The notes: generated from the sequence alone by a model not told the origin. DNA of 64,000 nucleotides from an uncultured Gemmataceae bacterium (GCA_963750165.1 CAVVPN010000003.1:3168001-3232000), one strand, 5' to 3'. Counted from the stretch's first letter, positions 12,900 to 64,000 are shown. A program made the numbers and translations.

Positions 12900-14050
12900 T
12901 CAGAGGTAATACAACCAGGCGATGACCTGATGCCAGCCCTCGGTGACGTCGTTGAGCCACCCTTCGGGCTCGGTGTAGACGACGACGCTCCCGGTCATGC
13001 CGACCCGCAGCGGCACGGACTCGGGGTCGTCAAGGGTCAGTCGCACCTGGAAGCGCTGGGCCGGCGGCACCCAGCTCGACGGAACCTTCACATCGGGCAG
13101 CTGACCGGAAGGCACGCCCTGTCCCTGGCTCACCCCCCAGCCGACGGACATCACCTCGGCATCGAAGAGACGGCCGGGCACGCCGCGAAAGGCAATGCGC
13201 GCCGGCTGTCCCTCGCGCACCCCGACCAGCGCGTTCTCGCGGAAGTTGGCCACGATCAACCAGCGACCGGTGTCGATCAACGTCAAGACAGCCTGGCCGG
13301 TGTGGGCGTAGGCACCCTCGCGCAACTGCAGATCGGTAATGAGTCCGTCGCACGGCGCGTACACGCGCGTCCATTCCAGGTTGAGCCGGGCCTCGGCGAG
13401 CTGCGCCTCGACCTCCGCGACCAGCGCATGTTCCTCGTCGATCTGCGCCGCCAGCGCCTCCTCGGCCTTGCGGACCTGCGCCGGGAGCGCTTCAGGGCCG
13501 CCTGCGCTGCCTTGAATTTCTGGAGCGCATCCAGGTATTTCCGGTCGGTGGTGGCCTCCTGCTTGAAGATCTCCTTCTCCTGCAGGTGGACCGCCCGGGC
13601 GTAATCCTCCTCGGCGACCAGCCGCGTATCCTCGGCCTCGGCGGCCACCAGGTCGGCTTCCAACTGGGCAACCTGCTGGACGGCCAGGACCCGTTTCGCG
13701 AGCAGCAGTTCCACCCGGTGCTTGAAGGACCGCCGATCGATCTCGAAAAGCAGATCGCCCTTCTTCACGGTCTGGTTCTCCCGGACGTGGACGCGAACCA
13801 CCTGGCCCTCGACCCGGGGCGCCACCTGAACGACGTAAGCCTGGACGTAGGCCTCCGTGGTAAGGGGGGTGTAGCGATCCGACAGCACGTAATAGGCGAT
13901 CAGGACCGCGATCAACAGCAGGAGGAACAGGATCAGGGACCGTACAGACAGCAACAGCTTCCACCCGATTCTCAGGGGGGAAAGCAATACTGCCAGCAAG
14001 AACCTCCCGAGTCGGCCCAGGAACGAGCGGAAATGGTGCAGTGCCATCAT
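12900..14050 (-). CDS. HlyD/EmrA-family membrane-fusion protein; apparent frameshift at ~13481
   Basis: N-half in ORF 13283-14050 (TM anchor, TTEAYVQAYVVQVAPRVEGQV, KKGDLLFEID). C-half in ORF 12900-13964 (ARLNLEWTRVYAPCDG, IVANFRENAL, PAQRFQVR). One added base joins them as ...LKRSRAQVRKAEE... Confidence 0.88.
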
Positions 14051-15624: not shown

Positions 15625-15796
15625 AAGGAGTCCTCTTCTCGGCAGGACGACACCTGGCTGGAACGCGACCCTCGGTGGATGCCAGGACATGGCGATCAAG
15701 ACGAATGGATGCTGACTGTATTATCGGCACAATCGATACGAGGCTTTACTCCACCCTTCAACCACCCAGACACCCCATTCTGCCAGGCACCTGGGG

Positions 15797-16606: not shown

Positions 16607-19600
16607 ATGTCTTTCCCGTCGTGGCGTCAGTTGGTGCAGCGGTCTCGTCGCAACGCCGGTGTCGCCGGCCAGAAACGCCGTCCGGCCCTGGCCGGGCACT
16701 TCTTCCGCGGCCTCTGGCTCGAGGCCCTGGAAGACCGCACGCTCCTCTCGACGTACCAGTGGACCGGCGCCAGTTCGGCCCTGTGGAACGTCGCCGGCAA
16801 CTGGACCGGGGGCCCCGCCGGCACCTTCCCCACTGCCGCTGGCGACATCGCCCAGTTCACCGGCACCATCACCGGCAGCACCACGGCCACCGTCAACGCC
16901 GCCATCACCGTCGGCGAGATTGACTTCAACACCGCCAGCAACATCACCATCAACAATACCGGCGGCAACGTCCTGACCCTGGACAACACCGGCGGCGGCA
17001 GCGCCAACGCCATCCTGAACGTCGCCGCCACCAACACCGGCACGCAGGTGATCAGTGCCCCGCTGGCTGTCGCAACCGCCACGCCGCTGACCGCGACTGT
17101 CTCCGGCGGCACGCTGCAACTGACCAACACCGCCACCGGCGCCACCGCCAACGTCATCGGCAGCACGAGCACGTTTACCGTCAACACCGGCGGCACCCTG
17201 CGCGAAAGCGCCGCGGGCTCGGGCTCCCTGACCACGGCCAACCTCACGGACACCGGCGCCCTGGGCAGCGCCGGGCTCACCCTGGCGGGCGGCTCCCTGG
17301 TCATCGACCCGACCGCGTCCACCGCGGCCAACGGCGTGGCCAGCAAGTACATCGTCCAGACCAGCAACCAGATCAACGGCAACGACTTCGTGAACGCGGC
17401 GGCGATCACCGGCGCACCGACCTTCCAGACCAGCGCCGTCGCCGCCGCCCCGGGCCTGGCCAACAGCTTCGCCTTCGGCACCAACGCCCCCGGCACCGGC
17501 CAGTCCTTCGGCGCCAATGTCCCGACCACCAACTTCGCTGCCGTGTGGAACGGCATGCTCCCAATCACCTCGCCGGGGCCCACCACCTTCACCTCGACCA
17601 GCGACGACGCCATGAAGGTCTACGTCGATGGTATGCTCGTGGTCAACAATGACGGTTCCCACGGGCCCACTGGCCAGGCCTCGGGCACGATCAACCTGAC
17701 GCCCGGCCTGCACAACCTGCGCGTGCTCTACGCCCAGAGCAGCGGCGGCGACGAGGCCCTGCTCAGTTACACGCCGGCCGGCGGCACCGCGCAGCCGATC
17801 CCCTTCACCTCCCTGTACACGCCCGACCCGCTCAACCTCGGCAACGCCGTCACCGTGTCGTCTGCCTCGACCATCACGCTCAACGGCGGCAACTTCACCG
17901 CCGTCGGTCTGGGCACCCTGGCCCTCAACGCCAGCCTGACGGTGAACGCCCAGGCGGGCAAGCGCCTGAACTTCAGCGGCGCCACCACCACCTCCACCAG
18001 TTCGGTCACCCTGAACGACAGCGCCGACGTGGGCTTTGTCAGCAGCTACAGCGCCTACCCCTACACCGCCGGCGTGGTCAACCTGCCGGGCGTCACCCTG
18101 GTCAAGCAGGGCGCCGGCCAGCTTATCCTCGACAACACCAACGCCACCTCCTCGAACATCTTCACCGGTTCGACCCTCGACATCCAGGCTGGCCGCGTGG
18201 TGGCCGTCGGCAGCAACACCGCCACCTTCAACGCGGACCCGCTGGGCACCGCCGCCGTCACCATCGACGGCGGCACGCTGTCGCTGGACACGAGCAACGG
18301 CCCCATCACCTTCGATAACGCCGTGGCCGTCACCAACTCCGGCACCCTGGAAGACCAGGCCAACGCGGCGACGCTGATGCTGGGCAGTGCCACGACCACC
18401 AACACCATGAGCATCGCCACCGGCAAGACCCTGACCGTCAACACCTTCGGCGGCTCGCCCCCGGCGCTGGGTAACGCCGCCGGCGCCACCCTGCAGATCA
18501 ACGAGCCCATCAGCGGCGGGGGCGCGCTGGTCGTGAACAGCATCCCGTTCAGCACCACCGCCAACGCCGGCACGGTGATCCTCAACCCGGTGGCCGACAG
18601 CACGTTCACGGGTGGCCTGACCGTCAACGGCGGCCTCGTGAAAGACACGGCCGAGAACGGCCTGGGGGCGGGCCCCGTGGTCGTGAGCGCCAGCAAACAG
18701 GTCACCATCGTCGGCGCCGGCACCGCCACCACCGTCACCGGCTTCACCGTGAAATCGGGCGCCACGCTGCTGGCCGACACCCCCTCCGCCCCAGGCGGCG
18801 CCGGCGGCGGCGTGATGAACGGCGACTTCGAGACCGGCGACCTCACCGGCTGGACGGCGGGGCAGAACGTCACCAACGGCGTCAACGGCCTGCCCACCAT
18901 CACCACGGCGGTCGTCCACACCGGCATGTACGCCGTCGCGATCGGCAACTTCGGCGCGTACCCGTCCCCGGAACCCCTGGGCGACGACTACCTCACGCAG
19001 GTCGTGACTGTGCCGACCAGCAGCCCGAGCTTGACCTTCTGGACCAACGAATACACGACGGACTCGATCTCCTACGACTGGCAGGACGCATACATCATGG
19101 ACGCCACCGGCACCACGCTGCTGGCCACCATCTTCCACGTCTGCCAAACCCAGGGCTGGACCCAGACCACCTTCGACATGACGCCCTACGCCGGCATGAC
19201 CGTGACCATTGAGTTCCTGGTCCACCAGGACGGCTACGGCGATGACACCGGCATGTACGTCGATGATGTCGTCCTCTCTGGCAGCGGCAGCGGCACCACC
19301 ACCTACATGCCCCGCTTCAGCCCCACCGCCGCCGTGAACCTGCAGGGCGGCAGCTTCACCTACAAAAGCGGTGTCGGCGGCACCACCAACGAGACCCTCG
19401 GGGCCATCAACGTCCAGAGCGGCTTGTCCACCGTCACCCTGAATTCGCAGGGCAGCGGCAGCTTGAACGTGGTGGCGGACAGCCTGAACGAGGCCGCCGG
19501 GGCGGCCGTCAACTTCGTCGGCCAGGGGGCCGTCCTGGGCACGGCCAACAATAACCTGACCTTCACCACCGCCCCGACGCAGACCAACGGCATCATCGCC

Positions 19601-22600
19601 GGGGCCTACATCGGCGGCAGCGATTTCGCCGTCTACAACCAGGGCGGCCAGACCGGCCTCTCGGCCTCCGTCGGCTCCCCCGGTGCCGGCCCGAACGTTG
19701 TGGCCAACCCCGGCTTCGAGACGGGCGACTTCACCGGCTGGACAACGGGCGGCGGCAACCCGACGCCGATGGTCTCCACCGCGGTAACGAATTCGGGCAC
19801 GTACTCCGCCGCACTGGGCAGTTTCCTCCCTTACCCGGCTTCGGAACCGCTGGGCGACAGCACCCTTTCCCAGGTGGTCAACGTGCCCGCTGCCAGCGAC
19901 GCCCCGGTTTTGACCTTCTGGACCAACGAGTACACGACGGACTCGATCTCCTACGACTGGCAGGACGCATACATCAAGGATGCGACGGGCACCACGCTGC
20001 TGGCCACCATCTTCCACGTCTGCCAAACCCAGGGCTGGACCCAGACCACCTTCAACATGGCGCCCTACGCCGGCATGACCGTGACCATTGAGTTCCTGGT
20101 CCACCAGGACGGCTTCGGCGACGACACCGGCATGTATGTCGATGATGTCTCCCTCGCAGGCACCATCATTCCCTACTACGCCACCACCCTGGTCGGCGCC
20201 ACCGCCACCAGCAACGTCAAGCTCACCAGCAACGATGTCATCCCGACGGGCGGCTTGACAGTCAACGCGCTCATCATCGCCGGCAACGGCATCACGGTCA
20301 CGGGTGCCCCGGGCAACAGCCTGACCATCGGCGACCAGACGCTCCTGGTCACCGGCGGCGCCGACGCCATCAACGCCCCGTTGAGCCTGGGCACGACCGG
20401 CACCACCGCTGTCATCGCCAACGCCGGGGCGACCGCCACCTTCAACGGCCCCATCAGCGGCTCCAGCCTCACCGTGATGGGCGGCACCACCGTGCTCAAC
20501 GCCGCCGACACCTACACCGGCGGCACCACGCTGGAGTCGGGCACACTTACCATCGGCAACCCCACTGGCCTGGGCACCGGGGCGCTGAACCTCGTCAATG
20601 GCACCGTCCAGTCCAGCGTCGCCACCACGGTCAGCAACGCCGTCAACCTGAACAACGCCGGCGGCACCAACGGCACCGTGACCCTCGGCGGCAGCGCGCC
20701 GCTGACCTTCAGCGGCCAGGTCAACCTGACCGGCGCCAATACGCTTGTCGCTTCCAACCCGGCCGGCACCAACTTCTCCGGGTCGCTCAGCGGCACCGGC
20801 TCGCTGACCCTGGTTGGCGGCGCCAGCGGCGGCACCGTGGGCCTGTCGGGGGACAACAGCGGCTACACCGGCACCGGCACGGGCATCACCCTGGCGGGCG
20901 GCACCCTGGTCCTGGGTTCCAACAACGCCCTGGGCGGCGCCACCAGCGCGGCCACCCTCAGCGGCGGCACCATCCTGGCCAGCACCGCGGTCACCCTGCC
21001 CGTGCCGATCCTCGTCAACGGCCCGGTGACGTTCGGCGGCAACAACGCCATCACCCTCAGCGGCCCCATCACCACGGCTGGCGCCGCGCTCACGGTCAAC
21101 AACAGCACCACGATCACCGGCGCCGTCACCGGCTCGCTGGAACTGGTGGGCGGCTCGGGCACGCTGGCGCTGGGCAACGCCGCCACGGTCAGTGGCGCCA
21201 CCACGGTGGCCGGCGGCACCCTGAGCGTGGGCAGCGCCGCCCCGCTCGGCACCGGCACGCTCTGGCTCTCCGGCGGCACCGTGCTGCCGACCGCCGCCGG
21301 TCTGACGTTCAGCAACCCCGTGCAACTCAGCGGTTCGCCGACCATCGGTGGTACCGTTGCCAACGCCGCCACCTTCAGCGGCCCCGTCACCCTGGCGGGC
21401 CCCACCACCCTCACGGTGGCCAACAGCGCCACCGTCACCGGCGCCATCAGCGGCGGGCCCACGGCGGGCCTGACCCTGGCCGGCGGCACCCTCAACCTGC
21501 AAGGCGCCAGCACCTTCACCGGCACCACCAACATCAGCGGCGGCAACCTCGTGCTCAATGGCGCCAACGGGGCGCTGACGGCGACCGCCGGCATCATCCT
21601 GAACCAGGGCGGCACCCTGACGCTGGACGACTCCGCCACCAATAACACCAGCCGCATCAACGCCACCGCCCCCATCACCGTCAACGGCGGCAACCTGGCC
21701 CTGATCGGCAACGGCACCGCTCTCACAGTGCAGCCGCTGGGGGTGGTCACGTTTAACAGCGGTCTTTCGACGATTTCGGTGAACACCACCGGCCCGGGCG
21801 CGGCGTTCAGCCCCGCCGACCTGAACCGCAATCAGGGGGCCACCATCAACCTCACCGGCAACAGCTGGGCAACCACTGCCACCGGGACCATCCTGCCCTA
21901 CGCCACGGTGAACGGCACCACCTGGGCGGTGCTGACATCCACCGGCGCTGCCGGCTTCACCGGCTACACGACCAGCCTGCCCACCGGCGGCGGCACCGGC
22001 ACCGAGAACGTCAAGCTGACCGGCGGCACCACCACGGTCACGCAGAACACCACGATCTTCTCGCTCGTCCTGGCCAACGGCGCCAACCTGACCATCAGCC
22101 CAGGCGTGACGCTGACCATCGTCAGCGGCGGCGTGCTGGTCACCGGTGGCAGCAGCACGGTCAGCGGCGGCATCCTGGCCCTGGGCAGCAACGCCACCAC
22201 GGATGGCGTCCTGATTACCGACGTTGCCACCACCAGCCTGACGATCAACAGCACCATCGCCGGCAGCGGCGGCCTGACGATCAGCGGCGCCGGCACGATC
22301 ACCCTGAACGCGGCCAACACCTACACCGGGGCGAACGCAGTCAACGGCGGCACGCTGATCCTCGGCAACGCCTCGGCCCTGAGCCTGGGCACCCTGACCC
22401 TGACCGCCGGCACCCTGCAAACCTCGGTCAGCGGCGGCCTGACCTTGCAGAACGGGGTTGTGCTGAACAACAGCAACGTCACCATCGGCGGCACCAACGC
22501 CATCACGTTCCAGCCGCCCGCCATCAGTTCCCTCAGCCCCGGCTGGACGATGTTCCAGGACGCCAACCCCGGCGGCACCGGCAACATTAAAGCCCAGTTC

Positions 22601-25600
22601 GGGATTGAGTCGGGCGTGGTCAACTCGGGGTCATATGCCGTCCTGCTCGGCAACACCGTGGGCAGCCAGGAACCGAACGGGTCCGCCTACCTCCAGCAGA
22701 CTGTGGCCGTGCCGGCCGGCACCCCACAGCTGACCTTCTGGACCAACAGAGGCACGACCGACAGTATCACCTTCGACTGGCAGGATGTGCAAATCCTGAG
22801 CCCCGCCGCCCCGCTCAGCATCGTCAGTGCCATCCAGTCGGGCACCACCGTCACCGTCACCACCTCGATACCCCACGGGTTCACCGTTGGGGAATCGGTC
22901 CTGATGGGGGGCATCAACTCAGGCACGGGCGACATCGGCCTCAACGGCACCTACACGATCACGTCCGTCCCCTCGCCCACGACCTTCACCTACGTCCAGC
23001 CGAATATCTCCGGCGCCAGCGGCACCGGCGGCACCGTGAGCCTGGTGCTGGCCACCATCTTCCACAACTGCGTGACCCAGGGGTGGACCCAGACCACGTT
23101 CGACATGACCCCCTTCGCGGGCCAGACCGTGATCCTGTCCTTCCTGACCCACGGGGATGGCTTCGGCGACACCACCTTCATGTACGTCGATGACATCTCC
23201 CTGACCGACGGGATGGGTGGCCCCAACGTCGTGGTCAACCCCGGCTTCGAGGCCCCGCCCACGGTGGTTGGCGGCTTCGCCCTGAACGGACTGAACAACA
23301 CGCTCACGGTCGGCAACGCCGCTGGCACGCCTCAGGTCGCCATCAACGGCGTGGTCTTCACCGAGTCCGGGGCGGTCGGCAACCTGATCAAGTCCGGCCC
23401 CGGCACGCTGGTCCTGAACAGCAGCGCCAACACCTACTCCGGCCAGACCGTCGTCAACCAGGGTGTGCTGCAGCTGAATAACACCACGGTCACGTCCGGC
23501 ATCGTCCCGTACACCTCGCCGCTGGGCAGCACCCTTACCGGCGCGCCCACGGTGGTCGCCAGCGGCGCCAGCCTGCAGCTCCTCGGCTCGGGCATGAACT
23601 TTTACAACCCGCTCGTCCTGAGCGGCAACGGCGTCAGCGGCAACGGCGCCCTGGAGAACCTGGCCGGCGGCAACAACACCTGGTCCGGCAATGTCATCTT
23701 GAACGGTAACGCCAGCATCGGCGCGGACGCGGGCACCACGCTGTCCCTTACCGCGGGCGTGCTCAACGGCCAGGCCTCCGGCGGCCTCAGCGGCACCGGC
23801 ACCCTGACCAAGGTGGGGAGCGGCACGCTGGCCGCCGCCAGCAGCAGCACCATCAACAACTTCGGCAGCACCGGCACGGGCTGGACGCTCAATGGCGGCG
23901 CCACCGTTTCTTCCAACATCCTCACGTTGACGGACAACGGCGGCAGCGAGGCCCGCTCCGCCTGGTACGATGTCCCGGTCAATACGGGCAGTTTCTCCGT
24001 CAGTTTCACGTACACCGTCGGGGGCAGCCTGGCGGCGGACGGTGCCGGCTTCGTCCTTCAAAGTCAAGGGCTTACCGCCCTGGGAGCGGGCGGCGGCAGC
24101 AAGGGCTACGACGGCATCACCTCCAGCGTGGGGCTGATGTTCAACATTTATACCGGCGGGGGTGGGCCGATCGGCGTCAGCCTCGTGACCGGCGGGTCCG
24201 GTGCCAGCAACAACACCGCGTACACCCCCAGCACCCCGGTGAATCTGGCCAGTGGCGACCCGATCAACGTCACCCTGACGTATGACGGCACCACGCTGGC
24301 GGTCAGGCTCGTGGACCAGACCACCAGCAGCGTCTTCACCATCAACTACCTGGTCAACATCCCGGGCCTGGTCGGCAGCACCGCCTACATGGGCTTCACC
24401 GGCGGCACCGGCGGCGCGGCGTCCATCCAGACGATCAGCAATTTCGCCTTCGTATCGACCACGCCATCCTCGACCCAGACGGTCGCCACCTCGGCACCTC
24501 CTTTCACCGGCAACGTCGTCGTCGGCAGCGGCATCCTCAACGTCCAGAGCGGCCAGGCCCTCGGCCAGGCCACCAGCGCGGGTGGCGGTTCGGTCACGGT
24601 CAACGCCGGCGCCACGCTCCAGTTGCAGGGCGGCATCACCGTCGCCGGCAAGAACGTGACGCTGGCCGGCACCGGCTTCGGCAACGTCGCCGGTCAGACG
24701 GCGGCCCTGCCGCAGGGCGCCCTGGTCAGCCTCTCCGGCACCAACCTCTGGACCGGGAACATCGCCCTGACGGGCACGGTGGGCCTGACCGGCGGCTCTC
24801 TGCCACTGCTGTCCGCGACCAGCACCGGCACCCTGATCGGCGCCGCCGGCGGTTCGACACTGCAAATCGCCGGCGTCGTCAGCGGCACCGACTTCACCAA
24901 GGTCGGCGCCGGCGCCGTGCAGCTGCTCGACGTCAACACCTACACCGGCGCCACCACGGTCCTGGGCGGCAACCTGACGCTGTCGAACAACAACACCGCG
25001 GCCGTGGGCACGGCGACGGTCGCTGGCTCGGCCGTCAGCGGCGTCACCAGCACCGTCAACGGCGTCACCTACACCAACTTCTCGGCCGGTTCGTTGACGC
25101 TCAACCAGTTCGGCACCCTGGGCAGCGCCGCCGTCGCCATCGACCAGAGCGGCCAGGTCACGATTGACGACACCGCCGTCAACCAGCATCGCTTCACCAA
25201 TGCCACGGCGCCGAGCGTGACCTTCAACTCCGGCAGCTTTACCTTCCAGGCGAACAACGGCCCGGGGGCCGTTACGGCCGAAACCCTGGGCGCGGTCACG
25301 CTCGCCAGCGGCCAATCGACCATCAACGCCGGCTACACCGCGGCCCCGGTCACGGGCGCCGGCGGTTCGACGCTGACCTTCGCCAGCCTGGTGCGCACCC
25401 CGGGAGCCACGGTTAACTTCGTCGGTGGCACGGTCTCCGGGGGCGTGCAGGCCTCGCCGCTGGGCGTGATGACCAACGGCGCGCTCAACCAACTCGTCGT
25501 CACCACCGCCCCGACGACGGTGGGTAACGGCGGCGGCATCCTGCCCTACGCCGAGGTCAACGGCGGCACCGGCAGCGGCGACTTCGCCACCTACGGCACC

Positions 25601-50928: not shown

Positions 50929-51014
50929 ACGGCAACCCAGGGCACGGTGTCACTGGCAATCCGGAGTTGGGTGGTTCGGTTGTTCCTGCCGTGCCGGTAA
51001 AGGGGGGAAGCTGC

Positions 51015-51092
51015 GTAAAAAAAACCGCCCAGAACAACCGACACTTTTTACTTGAGGATGGCGTATAGTCATTATAAAGGTTAATTTATGTG
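51015..51092 (+). promoter_or_regulatory. AT-rich promoter-like region upstream of giant gene 2
   Basis: Locally AT-rich; TTTACT-17bp-CATTAT (51047-51075) and TATAGT (51064-51069). Confidence 0.4.
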
Positions 51093-51198
51093 AGATGCGT
51101 TTCGGGCAACCGGAGCGCACGGGGGCTGAGCTGTCTTGGCAACCCCGGGTCCGCGTGCGGCTCTTCGTTTCTGAGTCCTGACACAAGTGAGTGGCAAC

Positions 51199-54100
51199 AT
51201 GTTCTTCTTCAGGTGGCGCGGCCCAGCAAAACGGGGTCATCGGGTTCCTTCGATGCGCGGCGTGGCCGGGCGGCCACGCAAGCGGCTGGGGGTCGAACTG
51301 CTGGAGAGCCGCGTCCTGCCGGCCAATTCCGCCTATATCAGCATGCCGACGAACCTGTCGGCCAACCAGGGCACGGTGGTGACCGTGCCCGTGACCATCA
51401 ACCACCTGTTCGACGCCGCCGGCAACCAGGGCCTGGCCGGGGCCGATGTCACCCTGACCTACGACCCCAACGTCTTCACCGTGGGGGACGCAGACATCAC
51501 CGTGGGCTCCCTGCTCACCAACCCGCCCCCCAACGGCACCTGGAATTTCGTGGAGAACACCGCCACACCGGGTGAGGTGGACCTGTCCGTGTCCACGTCC
51601 AGCGCCACCGCCTTCGTGACCAGCATGACGGGCGGCATCCTGGCCGACATCAGCTTCCACGTCAAGGGCGCGGCCCCGACCGGCAACAGCACCATCCAGG
51701 TCGTGACCCCACCCGCTTCCTCCCCCAACGGCAACAGCACCGACGCCCTGCCCGCCACCGGCCCCAACTCGCCGTCCGGCGACTTCGCCGGCTACACCCT
51801 GAGCGCCGCTGACCAGGTGAACGGCGTGGTCAACATCCAGAACTTCTCCCCGGTCACGACCCTGAGCCTGCCCGTCAACCTGCCCGCCATCCCGGGGCAA
51901 ACCATCACCGTGCCGGTGAACATCGCCAACCCCGACCCGGTCGGCAGTGCCGGCATGATCTCGGCGGACACGGCCATCATTTACGACCCGAACGTGCTGA
52001 CCGTGGCCAGCGCGGGTGCCGTGGCCCTGGGGAGCGACGTGCCGGCCACCGGCTGGTCGTTGACCTACGGGGTGGACACCAGCGGCAACAACACGGTGGA
52101 TTCGACCAAGGCCGCCCTGGGTCTGCACCTGACCAACACCAACTCGACGCCCCTGACCAGCACCAGCGCCGGCAGCCTGTGGCTGGTGACGTTCACGGTC
52201 AACGCCGCCGCCCCCACGGAGACGACGATCCTGAACCTGGTGCCGAGTGCCCGGGTGGGCGCCTCGATTACCACCACGAACGTCACCGGCGCCAACAAGG
52301 TGTATCAGTTGACCCCGGCGCCGACGAACGCCACCACGGACACGGTGGACGGCAGTGTCCAGATCAGCGGCAGCACCACGGGGGCGACGCACTTCAGCGT
52401 CAGCGGCCCGGCCACGGCCACGGCGGGGACGGCCGCCAGCTTCACGGTGACGGCGTTGGACGCCAGCAACAACCCGGTTTCGGGTTACACGGGCACGGTG
52501 CATTTCACGAGCACGGACGGCCAGGCGGTGCTGCCGGCGAACGCCATGCTGACCAACGGTGTCGGCACGTTCAACGTCACCTTCCACACGTCGGGCAACC
52601 AGACCGTGACGGCCACCGACACGGTGACCAGTAGCATCACCGGCACCAGCGGCCCGGTCGCCGTCAGCGCCGCGGCGGCCACGCACTTCAGCGTCAGCGC
52701 TCCCAGCAGTGCCACGGCGGGCAGCGCCTTCAACTTCACGGTGACGGCGCAGGACCAGTTCAACAACACGGCGACGGGCTACAGCGGCACAGTCCACTTC
52801 ACGAGCACGGACGGCCAGGCGGTGCTGCCGGCCAATAGTACGCTCACCAGCGGTGTCGGCACCTTCAGCGTCACGCTCAAGACCGCTGGCAACCAGACGC
52901 TCACGGCCACTGATACGGCGACCAGCACGATCACCGGCACCAGCGCCGCCATCGCCGTCAGCGCCGCCGCCGCCACGCACTTCAGCGTCACCGCTCCGGC
53001 CACGGCCACCGTTGGGACGGCGTTCAGCGTGACGGTGACGGCCCTGGATCCGTACAACAACACGGCGACGGGCTACACCGGCACCGTCCACTTCACCAGC
53101 ACCGACGGCAGCGCCGTGCTGCCGGCCAACAGCACCCTGACCAACGGCACCCACACCTTCAGCGCCACCCTGCAGACGGCCGGCAACCAGACCCTGACCG
53201 CCACCGACACGGTCACCAGCACCATCACCGGCACCAGCGCCGCCATCAGCGTCAGTGCCTCGACCGCCAGCTCCGCCTACATCAGCATGCCGACGAACCT
53301 GTCGGCCAACCAGGGCACGGTGGTGACCGTACCCGTGACCATCAACCACCTGTTCGACGCCGCCGGCAACCAGGGCCTGGCCGGCGCCGATGTCACCCTG
53401 ACCTACGACCCCAACGTCTTCACCGTGGGGGACGCAGACATCACCGTGGGCTCCCTGCTCACCAACCCGCCTCCCAACGGCACCTGGAACTTCGTGGAGA
53501 ACACCGCCACACCGGGCGAGGTGGACCTGTCCGTGTCCACGTCCAGCGCCACCGCCTTCGTGACCAGCATGACGGGCGGCATCCTGGCCGACATCAGCTT
53601 CCACGTCAAGGGCGCGGCCCCGACCGGCAACAGCACCATCCAGGTCGTGACCCCACCCGCTTCCTCCCCCAACGGCAACAGCACCGATGCCCTGCCCGCC
53701 ACCGGCCCCAACTCGCCGTCCGGCGACTTCGCCGGCTACACCCTGAGCGCCGCTGACCAGGTGAACGGCGTGGTCAACATCCAGAACTTCTCCCCGGTCA
53801 CGACCCTGAGCCTGCCCGTCAACCTGCCCGCCATCCCGGGGCAAACCATCACCGTGCCGGTGAACATCGCCAACCCCGACCCGGTCGGCAGTGCCGGCAT
53901 GATCTCGGCGGACACGGCCATCATTTACGACCCGAACGTGCTGACCGTGGCCAGCGCGGGTGCCGTGGCCCTGGGGAGCGACGTGCCGGCCACCGGCTGG
54001 TCGTTGACCTACGGGGTGGACACCAGCGGCAACAACACGGTGGATTCGACCAAGGCCGCCCTGGGCCTGCACCTGACCAACACCAACTCGACGCCCCTGA

Positions 54101-57100
54101 CCAGCACCAGCGCCGGCAGCCTGTGGCTGGTGACGTTCACGGTCAACGCCGCCGCCCCCACGGAGACGACGATCCTGAACCTGGTGCCGAGTGCCCGGGT
54201 GGGCGCCTCGATTACCACCACGAACGTCACCGGCGCCAACAAGGTGTATCAGTTGACCCCGGCGCCGACGAACGCCACCACGGACACGGTGGACGGCAGT
54301 GTCCAGATCAGCGGCAGCACCACGGGGGCGACGCACTTCAGCGTCAGCGGCCCGGCCACGGCCACGGCGGGGACGGCTGCCAGCTTCACGGTGACGGCGT
54401 TGGACGCCAGCAACAACCCGGTTTCGGGTTACACGGGCACGGTGCATTTCACGAGCACGGACGGCCAGGCGGTGCTGCCGGCGAACGCCATGCTGACCAA
54501 CGGTGTCGGCACGTTCAACGTCACCTTCCACACGTCGGGCAACCAGACCGTGACGGCCACCGACACGGTGACCAGCAGTATCACCGGCACCAGCGGGCCG
54601 GTCGCCGTCAGCGCCGCGGCGGCCACGCACTTCAGCGTCAGCGCTCCCAGCAGCGTCGCGGCGGGCAGCGCCTTCAACGTTACGGTGACGGCGCAGGACC
54701 AGTTCAACAACACCGCCACCAGCTACACCGGCACGGTCCACTTCACCAGCACGGATGGCCAGGCGGTGCTGCCGGCCAACAGCACGCTGACCAACGGCAC
54801 CGGCACCTTCAGCGTGACGCTCAAGACCGCCGGCAACCAGACCCTGACGGCCACTGATACGGCGACCAGCACGATCACCGGCACCAGCGCCGCCATCGCC
54901 GTCAGCGCCGCCGCCGCCACGCACTTCAGCGTCACTGCTCCGGCCACAGCCACGGCGGGCAGCGCCTTCAACGTTACGGTGACGGCGCAGGACCAGTTCA
55001 ACAACACCGCCACCAGCTACAGCGGCACCGTCCACTTCACGAGCACGGACGGCCAGGCGGTGCTGCCGGCCAATAGTACGCTGACCAACGGCACCGGCAC
55101 CTTCAGCGTGACGCTCAAGACCGCCGGCAACCAGACCCTGACGGCCACTGATACGGCGACCAGCACGATCACCGGCACCAGCGCCGCCATCGCCGTCAGC
55201 GCCGCCGCCGCCACGCACTTCAGCGTCACCGCTCCGGCCACGGCCACCGTTGGGACGGCGTTCAGCGTGACGGTGACGGCCCTGGATCCGTACAACAACA
55301 CGGCGACGGGCTACACCGGCACCGTCCACTTCACCAGCACCGACGGCAGCGCCGTGCTGCCGGCCAACAGCACCCTGACCAACGGCACCCACACCTTCAG
55401 CGCCACCCTGCAGACGGCCGGCAACCAGACCCTGACCGCCACCGACACGGTCACCAGCACCATCACCGGCACCAGCGCCGCCATCAGCGTCAGTGCCTCG
55501 ACCGCCAGCTCCGCCTACATCAGCATGCCGACGAACCTGTCGGCCAACCAGGGCACGGTGGTGACCGTACCCGTGACCATCAACCACCTGTTCGACGCCG
55601 CCGGCAACCAGGGCCTGGCCGGCGCCGATGTCACCCTGACCTACGACCCCAACGTCTTCACCGTGGGGGACGCAGACATCACCGTGGGCTCCCTGCTCAC
55701 CAACCCGCCTCCCAACGGCACCTGGAACTTCGTGGAGAACACCGCCACACCGGGCGAGGTGGACCTGTCCGTGTCCACGTCCAGCGCCACCGCCTTCGTG
55801 ACCAGCATGACGGGCGGCATCCTGGCCGACATCAGCTTCCACGTCAAGGGCGCGGCCCCGACCGGCAACAGCACCATCCAGGTCGTGACCCCACCCGCTT
55901 CCTCCCCCAACGGCAACAGCACCGATGCCCTGCCCGCCACCGGCCCCAACTCGCCGTCCGGCGACTTCGCCGGCTACACCCTGAGCGCCGCTGACCAGGT
56001 GAACGGCGTGGTCAACATCCAGAACTTCTCTCCGGTCACGACCCTGAGCCTGCCCATCAACCTGCCCGCCATCCCGGGGCAAACCATCACCGTGCCGGTG
56101 AACATCGCCAACCCCGACCCGGTCGGCAGTGCCGGCATGATCTCGGCGGACACGGCCATCATTTACGACCCGAACGTGCTGACCGTGGCCAGCGCGGGTG
56201 CCGTGGCCCTGGGGAGCGACGTGCCGGCCACCGGCTGGTCGTTGACCTACGGGGTGGACACCAGCGGCAACAACACGGTGGATTCGACCAAGGCCGCCCT
56301 GGGTCTGCACCTGACCAACACCAACTCGACGCCCCTGACCAGCACCAGCGCCGGCAGCCTGTGGCTGGTGACGTTCACGGTCAACGCCGCCGCCCCCACG
56401 GAGACGACGATCCTGAACCTGGTGCCGAGTGCCCGGGTGGGCGCCTCGATTACCACCACGAACGTCACCGGCGCCAACAAGGTGTATCAGTTGACCCCGG
56501 CGCCGACGAACGCCACCACGGACACGGTGGACGGCAGTGTCCAGATCAGCGGCAGCACCACGGGGGCGACGCACTTCAGCGTCAGCGGCCCGGCCACGGC
56601 CACGGCGGGGACGGCCGCCAGCTTCACGGTGACGGCGTTGGACGCCAGCAACAACCCGGTTTCGGGTTACACGGGCACGGTGCATTTCACGAGCACGGAT
56701 GGCCAGGCGGTGCTGCCGGCGAACGCCATGCTGACCAACGGTGTCGGCACGTTCAACGTCACCTTCCACACGTCGGGCAATCAGACCGTGACGGCCACCG
56801 ACACGGTGACCAGTAGCATCACCGGCACCAGCGGGCCGGTCGCCGTCAGCGCCGCGGCGGCCACGCACTTCAGCGTCAGCGCCCCCAGCAGTGCCACGGC
56901 GGGCAGCGCCTTCAACGTTACGGTGACGGCGCAGGACGCCTTCAACAACACCGCCACCAGCTACAGCGGCACCGTCCACTTCACCAGCACGGACGGCCAG
57001 GCGGTGCTGCCGGCCAACAGCACGCTGACCAACGGCACCGGCACCTTCAGCGTGACGCTCAAGACCGCCGGCAACCAGACGCTGACCGCCACCGACACGG

Positions 57101-60100
57101 TGACCAGCACGATCACCGGCACCAGCGGCACCATCGCCGTCAGCGCCGCGGCGGCCACGCACTTCAGCGTCAGCGCTCCCAGCAGCGCCACGGCGGGCAG
57201 CGCCTTCAACGTCACGGTGACGGCGCAGGACGCCTTCAACAACACCGCCACCGGCTACAGCGGCACCGTCCACTTCACCAGCACGGACGGTAGTGCCACG
57301 CTGCCGGTCAACAATACGCTCACCAACGGCGTCGGCACCTTCAGTGCCACCCTGCAGACGGCCGGCAACCAGACGTTGACCGCCACCGATACGGTGACCA
57401 GCACGATCACCGGCACCAGCAACACGATCACGGTCAGCACCTTCCCCGCTACGCACTTCGCCGTCAGCGCCCCGAGCAGCGCCACGGCGGGCAGCGCCTT
57501 CACCTTCACGGTCACGGCCCTGGACGCCAGCAACAACCCGACCACAGGGTACAGTGGCACGGTGCATTTCGCCAGCAGCGACGGCCAGGCGGTGTTGCCG
57601 GCAGACACCACCCTGACGAACGGCACCGGCACCTTCAGCGTCACGCTCAAGACGGCCGGCAGCCAGACCCTCACGGCCACCGACACCACTACCAGCACGA
57701 TCACCGGCACCAGCGCCGCCATCGCCGTCAGCGCCGCCGCCGCCACCCACTTCAGCGTCACCGCCCCGGCCACGGCCACGGCGGGCAGCGCCTTCAACTT
57801 CACGGTGACGGCGCAGGATGCCTTCAACAACGCCGCCACGGGCTATACCGGCACCGTCCACTTCACCAGCAGCGACGGCCAGGCCGTCCTGCCCGCCAAT
57901 AGCACCCTGACCAACGGCACCGGCACCTTCAGCGTCACGCTCAAGACGGCCGGCAACCAGACCGTGACCGCCACCGATACGGTGACCAGCACGATCACCG
58001 GCACCAGCGCCGCCATCGCCGTCAGCGCCGCCGCCGCCACCCACTTCAGCGTCACCGCCCCGGCCACGGCCACGGCGGGCAGCGCCTTCAACTTCACGGT
58101 GACGGCGCAGGATGCCTTCAACAACACGGCGACGGGCTACAGCGGCACCGTCCACTTCACCAGCTCCGATGGCCAGGCGGTGCTGCCGGCCAACAGCACG
58201 CTGACCAGCGGTGTCGGCACCTTCAGCGTCACCCTCAAAACCGCCGGCAACCAGACGATTACGGCCACCGATACGGTGACCAGCACGATCACCGGTACCA
58301 GCGCCGCCATCGCCGTCAGTGCCGCGGCGGCCACGCACTTCAGCGTCACTGCTCCGGCCACGGCCACGGCGGGCAGCGCCTTCAACTTCACGGTGACGGC
58401 GCAGGATGCCTTCAACAACGCCGCCACGGGCTACAGCGGCACCGTCCACTTCACCAGCAGCGATGGCCAGGCCGTCCTGCCCGCCAATAGCACGCTGACC
58501 AACGGCACCGGCACCTTCAGCGTGACGCTCAAGACCGCCGGCAACCAGACCGTGACCGCCACCGATACGGTCACCAGCACGATCACCGGTACCAGCGCCG
58601 CCATCGCCGTCAGTGCCGCGGCGGCCACGCACTTCACTGTCACGGCCCCGGCCACGGCCACGGCGGGCAGCGCTTTCAACTTCACGGTGACGGCGCAGGA
58701 TGCCTTCAACAACACCGCCACGGGCTACAGCGGCACCGTCCACTTCACCAGCAGCGACGGCCAGGCCGTCCTGCCCGCCAATAGCACCCTGACCAACGGC
58801 ACCGGCACCTTCAGCGTCACCCTCAAAACCGCCGGCAACCAGACGTTGACCGCCACCGATACGGTGACCAGCACGATCACCGGCACCAGCGCCGCCATCG
58901 CCGTCAGCGCCGCCGCCGCCACCCACTTCAGCGTCACTGCTCCGGCCACAGCCACGGCGGGCAGCGCCTTCAACGTTACGGTGACGGGCAGGACGCCTTC
59001 AACAACACCGCCACCAGCTACAGCGGCACCGTCCACTTCACGAGCACGGACGGCCAGGCGGTGCTGCCGGCGAACAGCACGCTGACCAACGGCACCGGCA
59101 CCTTCAGCGTCACGCTCAAGACCGCCGGCAACCAGACCGTGACCGCCACCGATACGGTGACCAGCACGATCACCGGCACCAGCGCCGCCATCGCCGTCAG
59201 CGCCGCCGCCGCCACCCACTTCAGCGTCACTGCTCCGGCCACAGCCACGGCGGGCAGCGCCTTCAACTTCACGGTGACGGCGCAGGATGCCTTCAACAAC
59301 GCCGCCACGGGCTACAGCGGCACCGTCCACTTCACCAGCAGCGACGGCCAGGCCGTCCTGCCCGCCAATAGCACCCTGACCAACGGCACCGGCACCTTCA
59401 GCGTGACGCTCAAGACCGCCGGCAACCAGACCGTGACCGCCACCGATACGGTCACCAGCACGATCACCGGTACCAGCGCCGCCATCGCCGTCAGTGCCGC
59501 GGCGGCCACGCACTTCACTGTCACGGCCCCGGCCACGGCCACGGCGGGCAGCGCTTTCAACTTCACGGTGACGGCGCAGGATGCCTTCAACAACACCGCC
59601 ACGGGCTACAGCGGCACCGTCCACTTCACCAGCAGCGACGGCCAGGCCGTCCTGCCCGCCAATAGCACCCTGACCAACGGCACCGGCACCTTCAGCGTCA
59701 CCCTCAAAACCGCCGGCAACCAGACGTTGACCGCCACCGATACGGTGACCAGCACGATCACCGGCACCAGCGCCGCCATCGCCGTCAGTGCCGCGGCGGC
59801 CACGCACTTCAGCGTCACGGCTCCGGCCACGGCCACGGCGGGCAGCGCCTTCAACGTCACGGTGACGGCGCAGGATGCCTTCAACAACGCCGCCACGGGC
59901 TACAGCGGCACCGTCCACTTCACCAGCAGCGATGGCCAGGCCGTCCTGCCCGCCAATAGCACGCTGACCAACGGCACCGGCACCTTCAGCGTGACGCTCA
60001 AGACCGCCGGCAACCAGACCGTGACCGCCACCGATACGGTCACCAGCACGATCACCGGTACCAGCGCCGCCATCGCCGTCAGTGCCGCGGCGGCCACGCA

Positions 60101-63100
60101 CTTCACTGTCACGGCTCCGGCCACGGCCACGGCGGGCAGCGCTTTCAACTTCACGGTGACGGCGCAGGATGCCTTCAACAACACCGCCACGGGCTACAGC
60201 GGCACCGTCCACTTCACCAGCAGCGACGGCCAGGCCGTCCTGCCCGCCAATAGCACCCTGACCAACGGCACCGGCACCTTCAGCGTCACCCTCAAAACCG
60301 CCGGCAACCAGACGTTGACCGCCACCGATACGGTGACCAGCACGATCACCGGCACCAGCGCCGCCATCGCCGTCAGTGCCGCGGCGGCCACGCACTTCAG
60401 CGTCACGGCTCCGGCCACGGCCACGGCGGGCAGCGCCTTCAACTTCACGGTGACGGCGCAGGATGCCTTCAACAACGCCGCCACGGGCTACAGCGGCACC
60501 GTCCACTTCACCAGCAGCGATGGCCAGGCCGTCCTGCCCGCCAATAGCACCCTGACCAACGGCACCGGCACCTTCAGCGTGACGCTCAAGACCGCCGGCA
60601 ACCAGACCGTGACCGCCACCGATACGGTGACCAGCACGATCACCGGCACCAGCGCCGCCATCGCCGTCAGCGCCGCCGCCGCCACCCACTTCAGCGTCAC
60701 TGCTCCGGCCACAGCCACGGCGGGCAGCGCCTTCAACGTTACGGTGACGGCGCAGGACGCCTTCAACAACACCGCCACCAGCTACAGCGGCACCGTCCAC
60801 TTCACGAGCACGGACGGCCAGGCGGTGCTGCCGGCCAACAGCACGCTGACCAACGGCACCGGCACCTTCAGCGTGACGCTCAAGACCGCCGGCAACCAGA
60901 CGCTGACCGCCACCGACACGGTGACCAGCACGATCACCGGCACCAGCGGCACCATCGCCGTCAGCGCCGCCGCCGCCACCCACTTCAGCGTCAGCGCTCC
61001 CAGCAGCGCCACGGCGGGCAGCGCCTTCAACGTCACGGTGACGGCGCAGGACGCCTTCAACAACACCGCCACCGGCTACAGCGGCACCGTCCACTTCACC
61101 AGCACGGACGGTAGTGCCACGCTGCCGGTCAACAATACGCTCACCAACGGCGTCGGCACCTTCAGTGCCACCCTGCAGACGGCCGGCAACCAGACGTTGA
61201 CCGCCACCGATACGGTGACCAGCACGATCACCGGCACCAGCAACACGATCACGGTCAGCACCTTCCCCGCTACGCACTTCGCCGTCAGCGCCCCGAGCAG
61301 CGCCACGGCGGGCAGCGCCTTCACCTTCACGGTCACGGCCCTGGACGCCAGCAACAACCCGACCACAGGGTACAGTGGCACGGTGCATTTCGCCAGCAGC
61401 GACGGCCAGGCGGTGCTGCCGGCGAACAGCACGCTGACCAACGGCACCGGCACCTTCAGCGTCACGCTCAAGACGGCCGGCAGCCAGACCCTCACGGCCA
61501 CCGATACGGTCACCAGCACGATCACCGGCACCAGCGCCGCCATCGCCGTCAGCGCCGCCGCCGCCACCCACTTCAGCGTCACCGCCCCCAGCAGTGCCAC
61601 GGCGGGCAGCGCCTTCAACTTCACGGTGACGGCGCTGGACGCCTTCAACAACACGGCGACGGGCTACAGCAGCACCGTCCACTTCACCAGCACGGACGGC
61701 CAGGCCGTGCTGCCCGCCAATAGCACCCTGACCAACGGCACCGGCACCTTCAGCGTGACGCTCAAGACCGCCGGTAGCCAGACCCTGACGGCCACCGACA
61801 CGGTGACCAGCACGATCACCGGTACCAGCGCCGCCATCGCCGTCAGCGCCGCCGCCGCCACCCACTTCAGCGTCAGCGCCCCGGCCACGGCCACGGCGGG
61901 CAGCGCTTTCAACTTCACGGTGACGGCGCAGGACGCCTTCAACAACACCGCCAGTGGCTACAGCGGCACCGTCCACTTCACCAGCAGTGACGGCCAGGCC
62001 GTCCTGCCCGCCAATAGCACCCTGACCAACGGCACCGGCACCTTCAGCGTGACGCTCAAGACCGCCGGCAACCAGACCGTGACCGCCACCGATACGGTGA
62101 CCAGCACGATCACCGGCACCAGCGCCGCCATCGCCGTCAGTGCCGCGGCGGCCACGCACTTCAGCGTCACGGCTCCGGCCACGGCCACGGCGGGCAGCGC
62201 CTTCACCTTCACGGTGACGGCGCAGGACCAGTTCAATAACACGGCGACGGGCTACAGCGGCACCGTCCACTTCACCAGCAGTGACGGCCAGGCCGTGCTG
62301 CCGGCGAACAGCACGCTGACCAACGGCACCGGCACCTTCAGCGTGACGCTCAAGACCGCTGGCAACCAGACCGTGACCGCCACCGACACGGTGACCAGCA
62401 CGATCACCGGTACCAGCGCCGCCATCGCCGTCAGTGCCGCGGCGGCCACGCACTTCAGCGTCACTGCTCCGGCCACGGCCACGGCGGGCAGCGCCTTCAA
62501 CTTCACGGTGACGGCGCAGGATGCCTTCAACAACGCCGCCACGGGCTATACCGGCACCGTCCACTTCACCAGCAGCGACGGCCAGGCCGTCCTGCCCGCC
62601 AATAGCACCCTGACCAACGGCACCGGCACCTTCAGCGTCACGCTCAAGACGGCCGGCAACCAGACGTTGACCGCCACCGATACGGTGACCAGCACGATCA
62701 CCGGCACCAGCGCCGCCATCGCCGTCAGTGCCGCGGCGGCCACGCACTTCAGCGTCACGGCTCCGGCCACGGCCACGGCGGGCAGCGCCTTCACCTTCAC
62801 GGTGACGGCGCAGGACCAGTTCAATAACACGGCGACGGGCTACAGCGGCACCGTCCACTTCACCAGCAGTGACGGCCAGGCCGTGCTGCCGGCGAACAGC
62901 ACGCTGACCAACGGCACCGGCACCTTCAGCGTGACGCTCAAGACCGCTGGCAACCAGACCGTGACCGCCACCGATACGGTGACCAGCAGCATCACCGGTA
63001 CCAGCGCCGCCATCGCCGTCAGTGCCGCGGCGGCCACGCACTTCAGCGTCACTGCTCCGGCCACGGCCACGGCGGGCAGCGCCTTCAACTTCACGGTGAC

Positions 63101-64000
63101 GGCGCAGGATGCCTTCAACAACGCCGCCACGGGCTACAGCGGCACCGTCCACTTCACCAGTAGCGATGGTCAGGCGGTGCTGCCGGCTAATAGTACGCTC
63201 ACCAGCGGTGTCGGCACCTTCAGCGTCACGCTCAAGACGGCCGGCAACCAGACGATTACGGCCACCGATACGGTGACCAGCACGATCACCGGCACCAGCA
63301 GCGCCATCACGGTCAGCGCCGCCGCCGCCACGCACTTCAGCGTCACGGCTCCGGCCACGGCCACGGCGGGCAGCGCCTTCACCTTCACGGTGACGGCGCA
63401 GGACGCCTTCAACAACACCGCCACGGGCTACAGCGGCACCGTCCACTTCACCAGCTCCGATGGCCAGGCGGTGCTGCCGGCGAACAGCACGCTGACCAAC
63501 GGCACCGGCACCTTCAGCGTGACGCTCAAGACCGCTGGCAACCAGACCGTGACCGCCACCGACACGGTGACCAGCACGATCACCGGCACCAGCGCCGCCA
63601 TCGCCGTCAGCGCCGCCGCCGCCACCCACTTCACCGTCACTGCTCCGTCCACGGCCACGGCGGGCAGCGCCTTCAACTTTACAGTGACGGCCCTGGACGC
63701 CTTCAACAACACCGCCACGGGCTACAGCGGCACCGTCCACTTCACCAGTAGCGACGGCCAGGCCGTCCTGCCCGCCAATAGCACCCTGACCAACGGCACC
63801 GGCACCTTCAGCGTGACGCTCAAGACCGCTGGCAACCAGACGCTCACGGCCACCGACACGGTGACCAGCACGATCACCGGCACCAGCAGCGCCATCACGG
63901 TCAGCGCCGCCGCCGCCACCCACTTCAGCGTCACCGCCCCGGCCACGGCCACCGCCGGGACGGCGTTCAGCGTGACGGTGACAGCGCAGGACGCCTTCAA
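51199..64000 (+). CDS. Giant scaffoldin-like secreted protein (partial, >4,200 aa) with six cohesin-like domains and >32 Ig-like repeats; 1-bp deletion at 58987/58988
   Basis: Leader RKRLGVELLESRVLPA. ORF 51187-59085 breaks where GTGACGGCGCAGG reads GTGACGGGCAGG; repeats continue at 294-bp period in the shifted frame to the window end. Confidence 0.9.
51328..56553 (+). repeat. Three near-identical cohesinA-cohesinB blocks (51328-52371, 53272-54315, 55510-56553)
   Basis: GTVVTVPVTI..GLAGADVTLTYDPNVFTV..LADISFHV (A) and GQTITVPVNI..AIIYDPNVLTV..GSLWLVTFTV..DGSVQI (B); block offsets 1944 and 2238 bp. Confidence 0.85.
56569..64000 (+). repeat. Tandem array of 294-bp (98-aa) Ig-like repeats: 25 complete copies plus a partial one
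   Basis: Constant 294-bp period (one 293-bp unit); the 26th copy starts at 63918. Confidence 0.95.

Follow-up and report, generated by a model that had tools for sequence, protein, structure and literature searches.

Cohesin and dockerin modules on giant fibre-like proteins of a Gemmataceae bacterium: a portable cassette and a candidate anchoring scaffoldin

Cohesin-dockerin pairs are familiar as the connectors that hold enzyme complexes together. What, then, might such parts be doing on giant proteins in which no enzyme family is recognised? The question is raised by a window of 64,000 nucleotides (nt) from the 9.6 Mb, 93% complete genome of an uncultured Gemmataceae bacterium (GCA_963750165.1, CAVVPN010000003.1:3168001-3232000; G000:C3:3168001-3232000 in our numbering of genomes and contigs). 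Two adjacent genes on its plus strand, here called giant 1 and giant 2, carry a dockerin flanked by two cohesins and an array of six cohesins, respectively. Giant 1 is a single open frame (16607-50779, +) of 11,390 amino acids (aa) and 1.106 MDa, with a GC content at third codon positions (GC3) of 0.94. Such cohesin-dockerin parts sit here on giant fibre-like proteins, in 15 copies in one genome, and are expanded in several genera of a single planctomycete family. From sequence and structural models, giant 2 may be an anchoring scaffoldin for a genome-wide set of tagged fibres that may also chain via their own cohesins; we consider this reading about equally likely to be right or wrong.

The cassette of giant 1 and the cohesins of giant 2

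The original prediction, made from the sequence of the window, placed a two-loop dockerin at 49760-49945 near the end of giant 1. Indeed, a dockerin spans 49754-49969 (+). It contains two calcium-loop motifs as well as an invariant linker motif specific to the family, and it scores 31.9 bits against Pfam Dockerin_1 (PF00404, cut-off 22.9) when scanned alone, or 21.9 bits inside a 2,390-aa segment. Two cohesins that flank it had been missed. The upstream one, cohN (49328-49753, +), has a cohesin fold and is joined to the dockerin without a linker; its match to the Pfam cohesin family (PF00963) reaches 21.3 bits (E value 3.4e-4), below the cut-off of 24.1. The downstream one, cohC (50006-50497, +), is a type-I-like cohesin and exceeds that cut-off with 32.6 bits. 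A beta-rich conserved domain without a Pfam match, which mostly stands just before the cassette, lies at 48932-49318 (+).

Structure prediction gave the expected folds for cohN, cohC and the dockerin. The AlphaFold2 model of the cassette, built on a 50-row alignment (the shorter rows of the 106 aligned first), has a mean local confidence (pLDDT) of 92.3 and a global score (pTM) of 0.65, and was compared with 48,161 solved chains. CohC resembles the type I cohesin 4uyp (Z 16.5, root-mean-square deviation (rmsd) 1.9, 136 residues aligned), while cohN resembles the X82 cohesin 2vo8 (Z 14.0, rmsd 2.1, 123 aligned) and the further X82 cohesins 2w1n and 2o4e (Z 13.4 and 11.9). The dockerin, with helices at model residues 155-165 and 194-204, matches solved dockerins at Z 9.1 and 8.9, the latter being 2ccl_B (rmsd 1.6, 62 aligned). 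Foldseek concurs on the cohesin fold of the cassette (E 2e-9), and the ESM Atlas, queried with the cassette, returned cohesin and dockerin clusters. By sequence and by model, the modules of the cassette do have the folds of cohesins and a dockerin. A pTM of 0.65 beside a pLDDT of 92 suggests that packing of the three domains into one body is not confidently predicted. The cassette is a portable module in which cohN is fused to the dockerin and cohC follows on a short linker.

Giant 2 starts at the ATG at 51199 and is read in two frames. The first (51199-59085, +) holds a leader followed by (cohA-cohB-Ig3)(cohA-cohB-Ig4)(cohA-cohB-Ig array), where Ig stands for an immunoglobulin-like repeat of 98 aa; the second (58986-64000, +) is a stalk of these repeats that extends beyond the window to about window+68915. 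Three blocks of DUF4214 follow to about window+70834 (G000:C3 3236916-3238834, locus L001), such that the gene runs 6.8 kb past the window and was read through 19,636 nt, or about 6,540 aa. Its six cohesins (PF00963, six stretches, 156 bits) had been described as preceding one long Ig array. The number was right and the contiguity was not, as they are interleaved with Ig repeats in the order A-B-Ig3, A-B-Ig4, A-B-Ig42. Scanned alone, cohA and cohB reach 53.5 and 38.7 bits, so that both, like cohC and the dockerin, exceed their Pfam cut-offs; cohA also matches the cohesin 1AOH by sequence (E 9e-6). The 98-aa repeat is indeed common to both genes, with seven units in giant 1 and 49 in giant 2 (48 by motif and one by eye), 33 of which lie within the window. 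Retrieved from beyond the window, the C-terminus of giant 2 proved to consist of DUF4214 repeats (PF13946, nine stretches, 290 bits, cut-off 23.2). No enzyme family appears among the Pfam matches of giant 2, and neither does a CBM3, an S-layer homology (SLH) domain or a sortase anchor, DUF4214 being present instead. In sequence terms, this layout is that of an anchoring scaffoldin.

The three cohA-cohB pairs (51328-52368, 53272-54312 and 55510-56550, all +), recognised by Pfam and by PDB sequence matches, are nearly the same: pair 2 is identical to pair 1 in protein, and pair 3 has one V/I difference. Since the copies are separated by 3-9 differences in 1041 nt and by one residue at most, the six cohesins are read as an A-B pair triplicated recently and under selection, not as an assembly echo; pair 1 differs from the others at 8-9 nt, mostly at synonymous sites, and at 0-1 aa. 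Both the paralog of giant 2 and its ortholog P0124 have two cohesins, and the count of six sockets is due to this recent triplication at strain level.

The leaders of the two giants are alike, as had been noted. Both are basic and end in an LExLExR-type motif (giant 1: 16607-16750, +, by sequence reading). The name 'planctomycete export leader' is a putative label, since neither leader matched any Pfam or NCBIfam model.

Distribution of the cassette and its gene partners

Does the cassette belong to this pair of genes alone? Genome-wide, Pfam gave 41 cohesin matches (38 over the cut-off) and nine dockerin matches. The census of dockerins comprises 15 that are related to that of giant 1, in 14 open reading frames (ORFs), giant 1 included, every one of them inside a cassette, and five further ORFs with a second dockerin class. 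The idea of a private two-gene system is thereby not supported, as the cassette that holds the dockerin of giant 1 exists in 15 copies. Four of the 15 form the giant-1 subtype and eleven have a degenerate loop 2. The proteins that carry them hold Ig, PATR, PA14, propeller and Calx-beta domains; no enzyme family was matched in their scanned regions, which cover all but a few stretches and include long low-complexity queries, in which domains can be hidden from Pfam. The ORFs of the second class (L029-L033) carry RHS and Ig repeats in three cases, Ig in one and LamG with PATR in one, and L029 has an S8 peptidase besides. Where the cassette proteins and these five ORFs were scanned, no glycoside hydrolase (GH) family was found. 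GH9 was not found in this 93%-complete genome with a search whose positive control matched in 1 of 14 genomes, and GH48 gave no match in a weak search whose control matched in 0 of 14.

Some further features of the genome touch on these proteins. Dozens of its ORFs exceed 2,500 codons. Five cassette proteins (C3:756197, C3:2973507, C11:1210340, C12:112703 and C12:556198) share a tail of equal length past the dockerin, about 1,085 aa, which opens with a pair of nearly identical cohesins; in the one tail that was scanned, the 700 aa after these have no Pfam match. The ORF at C11:1210340-1218844 holds two tandem cassettes of different subtypes.

Beyond this genome, a 390-aa cassette query retrieved 137 proteins of 684-2000 aa, and the statements that follow on listed homologs concern the 120 listed among these. 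CohN and the dockerin occur in all 120 and cohC too in 118, figures that are partly circular as query and hidden Markov models came from the same set; two of the 120 are from this genome, and two bear the source label Gemmataceae. Peptidases of family S8 or M23 occur in four. The original description of a megadalton non-catalytic cargo holds for giant 1, in which Pfam and NCBIfam scans matched no enzyme family, but elsewhere in its family the cassette also occurs on proteins with peptidase domains and so is not confined to non-catalytic ones. Within the bacterial family, the cohN-dockerin dyad was found in 21 of 252 genomes and 19 of 90 genera, nine genomes having at least 12 copies. In 400 genomes sampled from the rest of the phylum the cassette was absent at E<=1e-12, and a separate search matched it in G059, a genome from another family. 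Among the homologs are also many beta-propeller cargoes whose activity is not evident, and the C-termini of L054, L056, L057 and L059 show an extra dockerin-like motif, which in L054 reaches 45.4 bits against Pfam Dockerin_1. In G069 (L069:373-19901 and L070), at least three tandem giant genes each encode several N-terminal cohesins plus a cassette, a layout which, judged by domain order, is that of multi-socket adaptors.

Dockerin-free cohesin genes are far fewer. Only two were found in the genome, each directly behind a giant-1-type cassette gene and each ending in DUF4214. The second pair (C3:3402049-3444477) consists of a PATR/PA14 giant with a C-terminal cassette and a gene encoding leader-cohA-cohB-Ig25-DUF4214, which is unbroken. 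A cassette gene followed by a cohesin-only gene also occurs in G023, G059 and G071, the partner in G059 being a cohesin with a PEP-CTERM-like tail. Conservation of the gene pair, which had been proposed as a check, is thus seen in a paralogous locus and in three other genomes, but in only one of the 20 loci of one survey.

A search of representatives with cohA-cohB gave 281 hits, the best 150 of which are described. They include P0124, an unbroken ortholog of 1,776 aa with the order cohA-cohB-Ig12-DUF4214, further cohA domains on DUF4214 tails (P0138 and P0144) and others on short PEP-CTERM-like tails (P0129 and P0131). Some dockerin-free cohesins are proteins of 203-224 aa with little beyond a cohesin and a tail. 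A corresponding search of genome contigs yielded 225 pattern matches, none of them confirmed. In a FastTree tree of 76 domains, for which 30 cohC from other genomes were sampled at random and the dockerin-free cohesins picked by hand, cohA (n=13) and cohB (n=6) each form a clade with support 1.0; no dockerin was detected in the members, several of which are fragments.

The proposed assembly, its alternatives and its known relatives

How might these parts fit together? Both giants would be exported through their leaders. The DUF4214 tail, for which a role as surface anchor is probable from sequence and analogy, would hold giant 2 on the cell surface, probably on lipopolysaccharide (LPS), and the 42-Ig stalk would raise the six cohesin sockets. 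The dockerin of a cassette would plug into cohA or cohB in a calcium-dependent manner. CohN may serve as its rigid support, as the X module does in X-dockerins, a role suggested by the zero spacing between cohN and dockerin (170 of 176 cases) and by the invariant motifs on both sides. A docked fibre could then offer its cohC to the next dockerin, so that fibres chain and branch, although this step is the weaker one. The PA14 and lectin-like modules and those resembling carbohydrate-binding modules (CBMs) would recognise glycans, be it on substrates, in the matrix or on other cells. As there are 15 dockerins of this cassette, each with cohesins of its own, giant 2 has many candidate ligands and the dockerin of giant 1 many candidate partners. 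Judged from their domains, the giants would probably form a surface mesh that is made of cellulosome parts and free of enzymes. A more specific version has each cassette supply one plug and one or two sockets, such that a branched, calcium-locked mesh extends itself from DUF4214-anchored scaffoldins, free of enzymes and with a make-up set by which of the 14 tagged giants are expressed; this picture is tentative and on balance rather doubtful.

Several residues bear on the binding steps. In the 106-row cassette alignment, the calcium-loop aspartates are kept at D146 (94%) and D157 (100%) in loop 1 and at D185 (91%) and D196 (60%) in loop 2. In type I cohesins, an Asp of the binding face, known from 1AOH, is important for dockerin recognition, and an aligned Asp is present in cohA and cohB of giant 2 as well as in seven of nine second-position cohesins. 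Basic residues at dockerin positions 17/18 are a feature of type I recognition, and an Arg stands at position 18 of repeat 1 in 58% of the 106 rows of family dockerins. On strands 3 and 6, cohC keeps small residues (A267, 95%; G/A308, 94%).

A number of observations weigh against giant 2 as an anchoring scaffoldin for these fibres. The dockerin of giant 1 lacks the basic 17/18 residues, having Ser-Asn and Asn-Leu instead, and the binding-face Asp is found in just five of the 16 cohesins closest to a leader (two of them placed in a wrong register) and 17 of 125 cohC, which weakens the chaining step through cohC. The second dockerin class may be the true ligand of cohA and cohB. Nor is gene pairing a rule: it holds for two of the 14 cassette proteins in the genome and for the single surveyed locus already mentioned, two other proteins of the giant-1 subtype have no anchor gene behind them, and the pairings in G023 and G059 come from 14 loci chosen partly for cohesin hits. 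The partner in G023, with two cohesins and an Ig stalk, ends in FG-GAP repeats, which are not a known anchor, and the PEP-CTERM-like tails score below their cut-off. As for the DUF4214 block, which models at pLDDT 87, its best fold match is a phycobilisome linker (Z 11.7). The match to the LPS-binding domain of RsaA is weak (6t72 tops the Foldseek results at E 0.045 with rmsd 12; VIA, Z 4.3); Foldseek gave no match at E<=0.001, and a PDB sequence search with the block returned no hits. DUF4214-like domains are found on 38 ORFs of the genome, mostly at the C-terminus, so that the domain is a generic tail. In favour of an anchor, the RTX-DUF4214 protein Psh of Pseudomonas putida acts at the cell surface according to the available part of a preprint; its O-antigen binding was modelled there, and the authors cannot determine the binding mode (10.64898/2026.09.02.748959). 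Giant 2, finally, is frameshifted in the assembly.

Other readings of the cassette have to be set beside the anchoring scaffoldin. The cassette might be self-contained, its dockerin being filled by cohC in cis or only by the cohC of other cassettes, while the cohesins of giant 2 bind otherwise, perhaps to the second dockerin class of the RHS/Ig giants in its five ORFs. Of 194 distinct cassette dockerins, 171 have a cohesin on either side, and 141 of 189 are separated from cohC by 11-13 residues. CohC is as conserved as the other cassette domains (mean modal frequency 0.61), and most cassette loci have no neighbouring anchor gene. Yet a dockerin-cohC spacing of 16-82 residues in 44 of 189 fits less well, as does a model whose domains are not confidently one body, and both anchor genes stand behind giant-1-type cassettes and not behind second-class dockerin genes; we regard this possibility, in either form, as rather unlikely. 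Somewhat less likely still is a dedicated pair, in which giant 2 would hold up to six copies of giant 1, with cohN and cohC as inert spacers and no chaining. The adjacency of the genes in two paralogous loci, the lack of the binding-face Asp in most cohC, and a giant-1 subtype of four dockerins set apart from the eleven others would all fit; two more proteins of that subtype without an anchor gene behind them would not, the six-fold valence is a recent triplication, and the conserved small residues of cohC may be what is expected of a kept interface. It may also be that no plug meets any socket, the cohesin folds being rigid Ig-like spacers and the cassette a tag for folding, calcium-stiffening or secretion of giant adhesins. 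Here one can point to cassettes that, in 114 of the 120 listed homologs, lie no more than 450 aa from the C-terminus, to the likeness of the cohesin fold to pilin and adhesin domains (Z 8-10) and to the degenerate loop 2 of eleven of the 15 genome dockerins. Cassettes are, however, also N-terminal or central (L054, L066), and dockerin-free cohesins on anchor-like tails, including the proteins of 203-224 aa, make poor sense as spacers, so that we think this quite improbable.

Two further readings seem very improbable. An enzyme complex of the planctosome or cellulosome kind would have hydrolases docked beside the giant fibres or hidden within them. The S8 and M23 peptidases of four listed homologs, an Exo_endo_phos domain in L007, the S8 peptidase of one second-class ORF and the many propeller cargoes of unclear activity leave it some room, against which stand the scanned regions of the genome's own cassette proteins, where no enzyme family was matched, and the GH9 search with its weak control. 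Least probable of all is that giant 2 is decaying as a pseudogene, or that the number of its repeats is an assembly artefact. Giant 2 does have two frameshifts, a one-base shift near 58986 and another beyond the window, and the tail of giant 1 has one near 50675, after which a paralog-like sequence continues, in a different frame, up to the stop codon at 50926-50928. Three shifts in 54 kb over the giants nonetheless equal the background, 33 in 472 kb of ordinary paralogous genes or about one per 14 kb (genes matched by 250 sampled ORFs; four events are adjacent-bin duplicates), and because of this equality consensus error likely lies behind them. The A-B copies, moreover, differ mostly synonymously, none of 496 Ig-unit pairs compared is identical, and the paralog of giant 2 is unbroken.

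Among published systems, the nearest to an anchoring scaffoldin with tagged fibres is that of Paenibacillus guangzhouensis, predicted from sequence, in which almost every dockerin shares its protein with a cohesin (28 such adaptors) and five scaffoldins are anchored to the surface by SLH domains (Minor et al. 2024, PMC11557425). Both share the logic of adaptor and anchoring scaffoldin, but P. guangzhouensis is Gram-positive, uses an SLH anchor, often has glycoside hydrolases as cargo and puts one cohesin on each adaptor (PMC11557425). The present system is planctomycete, with a DUF4214 tail on a stalk of 25-42 Ig repeats, a fused cassette and megadalton fibre-like cargo in which no enzyme family was found. 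The 'planctosome' hypothesis for Nemodlikiaceae, as far as the accessible part of that paper goes, likewise combines an anchoring protein and a dockerin-cohesin adaptor in a planctomycete, is not for cellulose degradation and is a proposal, as here; its own parts are a Lamin-tail anchor with P-domains and TSP3, a HYR adaptor and M12B and M14 peptidases (Andrei et al. 2019, PMC6461901). None of these (Lamin-tail, P-domain, TSP3, HYR, M12B, M14) is among the Pfam matches of the scanned cohesin- and dockerin-bearing ORFs. A dockerin flanked by cohesins is described in Limihaloglobus sulfuriphilus, a PVC bacterium with separate dockerin-tagged enzymes, as a Coh2-Doc1-Coh1 protein; compared by description, that is a single protein, whereas the present cassette stands on 14 giants (PMC11557425). 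The scaffoldin of Ca. Stygibacter, also compared by description and from part of its source, is another non-cellulolytic cohesin-dockerin protein outside the Firmicutes (PMC8542988).

With the cellulosomes of clostridia and ruminococci the giants share folds (cohesins 4uyp, 3kcp and 1aoh; dockerins 4fl4 and 2ccl), a multi-cohesin protein with a surface-binding tail, and proteins of mixed modules. A scaffoldin with several cohesins and no enzyme family, as cellulosomes have, is present in giant 2. No dockerin-borne glycoside hydrolase, CBM3 or SLH was found in the regions scanned, in contrast to those systems, and here the dockerin is fused to a cohesin-fold domain. Membership in the cellulosomes was rejected on the absence of GH domains from the scanned regions of dockerin proteins and of CBM3, SLH and sortase signals from giant 2. 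The X82 cohesins of Clostridium perfringens, the best structural match of cohN, sit within glycoside hydrolases according to the accessible part of their description, and so share with the cassette the placement of cohesins inside the cargo proteins themselves (PMC12997984). At an identity of only 8-12%, the match of cohN shows fold and not function. Psh, in the part of the preprint available, resembles giant 2 in having a C-terminal helical DUF4214 on an exported, surface-acting protein, and differs in its RTX fusion, its type I secretion and its lack of cohesins (10.64898/2026.09.02.748959).

No published account of the cassette or of a cohesin-Ig-DUF4214 scaffoldin was found in a search that is thin on subscription literature, and the accessible parts of PMC12484212, PMC9692418, PMC11970703 and 10.1101/2023.11.21.568195 do not describe the system. 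In sequence, its distinctive features are the fused portable cassette, the megadalton non-catalytic cargo, the dedicated anchor-class cohesins and the DUF4214 stalk. With small, well-folded domains (the cohN-dockerin dyad, cohA, cohB and cohC), the idea of cohesin-dockerin assembly in planctomycetes becomes testable. Should the binding be true, these would be new and possibly orthogonal pairs for designer assemblies, and DUF4214 would gain a role as scaffoldin anchor; should the mesh be true, a cohesin-dockerin polymer would serve as building material and might account for some of the planctomycete surface fibres that lack an explanation.

The rod of giant 1 and the surroundings of the genes

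Most of giant 1 is a passenger repeat rich in G, T and N with PATR and TIGR02601 matches, read as a beta-helix-repeat rod. Into it are set a PA14 domain (17477-17824, +; 44.9 bits, Pfam cut-off 24) and a second one (36671-36943, +; 27.1 bits), a CBM-like jelly-roll module (18809-19288, +) with matches below cut-off to InhA-like_MAM (E 6e-5) and CBM_4_9 (E 0.005), a second CBM-like module (19694-20164, +; NTTRR-F1, 40.5 bits, below the cut-off of 70) and a third (22580-23212, +) assigned by its sequence likeness to the former two. A legume-lectin-like domain follows at 23849-24460 (+; PF18483, E 7e-14, 52.6 bits, below the cut-off of 78.3), and a DUF642-like module of CBM type, a weak match with E 0.039, at 38654-39100 (+). 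Since the lectin-like, CBM-like and DUF642-like matches are weak or below cut-off, sugar binding by these modules and by PA14 is a putative function. The seven Ig-like repeats (46859-48931, +; motif count and Pfam) precede the beta-rich domain and the cassette. Charged residues make up 4.8% of giant 1 overall and reach 10% or more only in the leader, the lectin-like and CBM-like modules and the cassette at the C-terminus. A type Va autotransporter was considered for the PATR/TIGR02601 repeats and rejected, as no translocator barrel was matched and the C-terminus is the cassette. Long antisense or shifted ORFs across both giants were set aside as shadows of frames with a GC3 of 0.93-0.94.

The rod also holds smaller inserts. 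An insert-domain motif has seven matches (31559, 31724, 32279, 33404, 37439, 42254 and 44807), two of which fall in one copy, and the ESM Atlas places this domain, at a score of 0.97, in unnamed clusters that have Planctomycetota among their sources. Small FCCH-like beta-barrels are inserted at 22835, about 42490, 45254 and 45485, one of them within the third CBM-like module.

Between the giants lies an intergenic region of 270 nt (50929-51198, +) with an AT-rich stretch, possibly a promoter of giant 2's own. A promoter scan of 50600-51400 gave no consensus sites. The AT-rich stretch (51014-51100) has a counterpart near C3 3433775, upstream of the paralogous anchor gene, and the two upstream regions share only a 33-nt segment (82% identity) and the start region.

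Upstream of giant 1, and divergent from it, a TolC-family gene (14071-15699) lies next to a gene for an HlyD/EmrA-type adaptor (12900-14050, -), which is split over two frames by one more frameshift; their sequences raise the possibility of a link to export. Further upstream are genes for surface sugars (8073-11775), encoding a dTDP-glucose 4,6-dehydratase, a UDP-glucose dehydrogenase and a methyltransferase, and at 249-4224 a Ser/Thr kinase, an ECF-type sigma factor and a DVUA0089-like protein.

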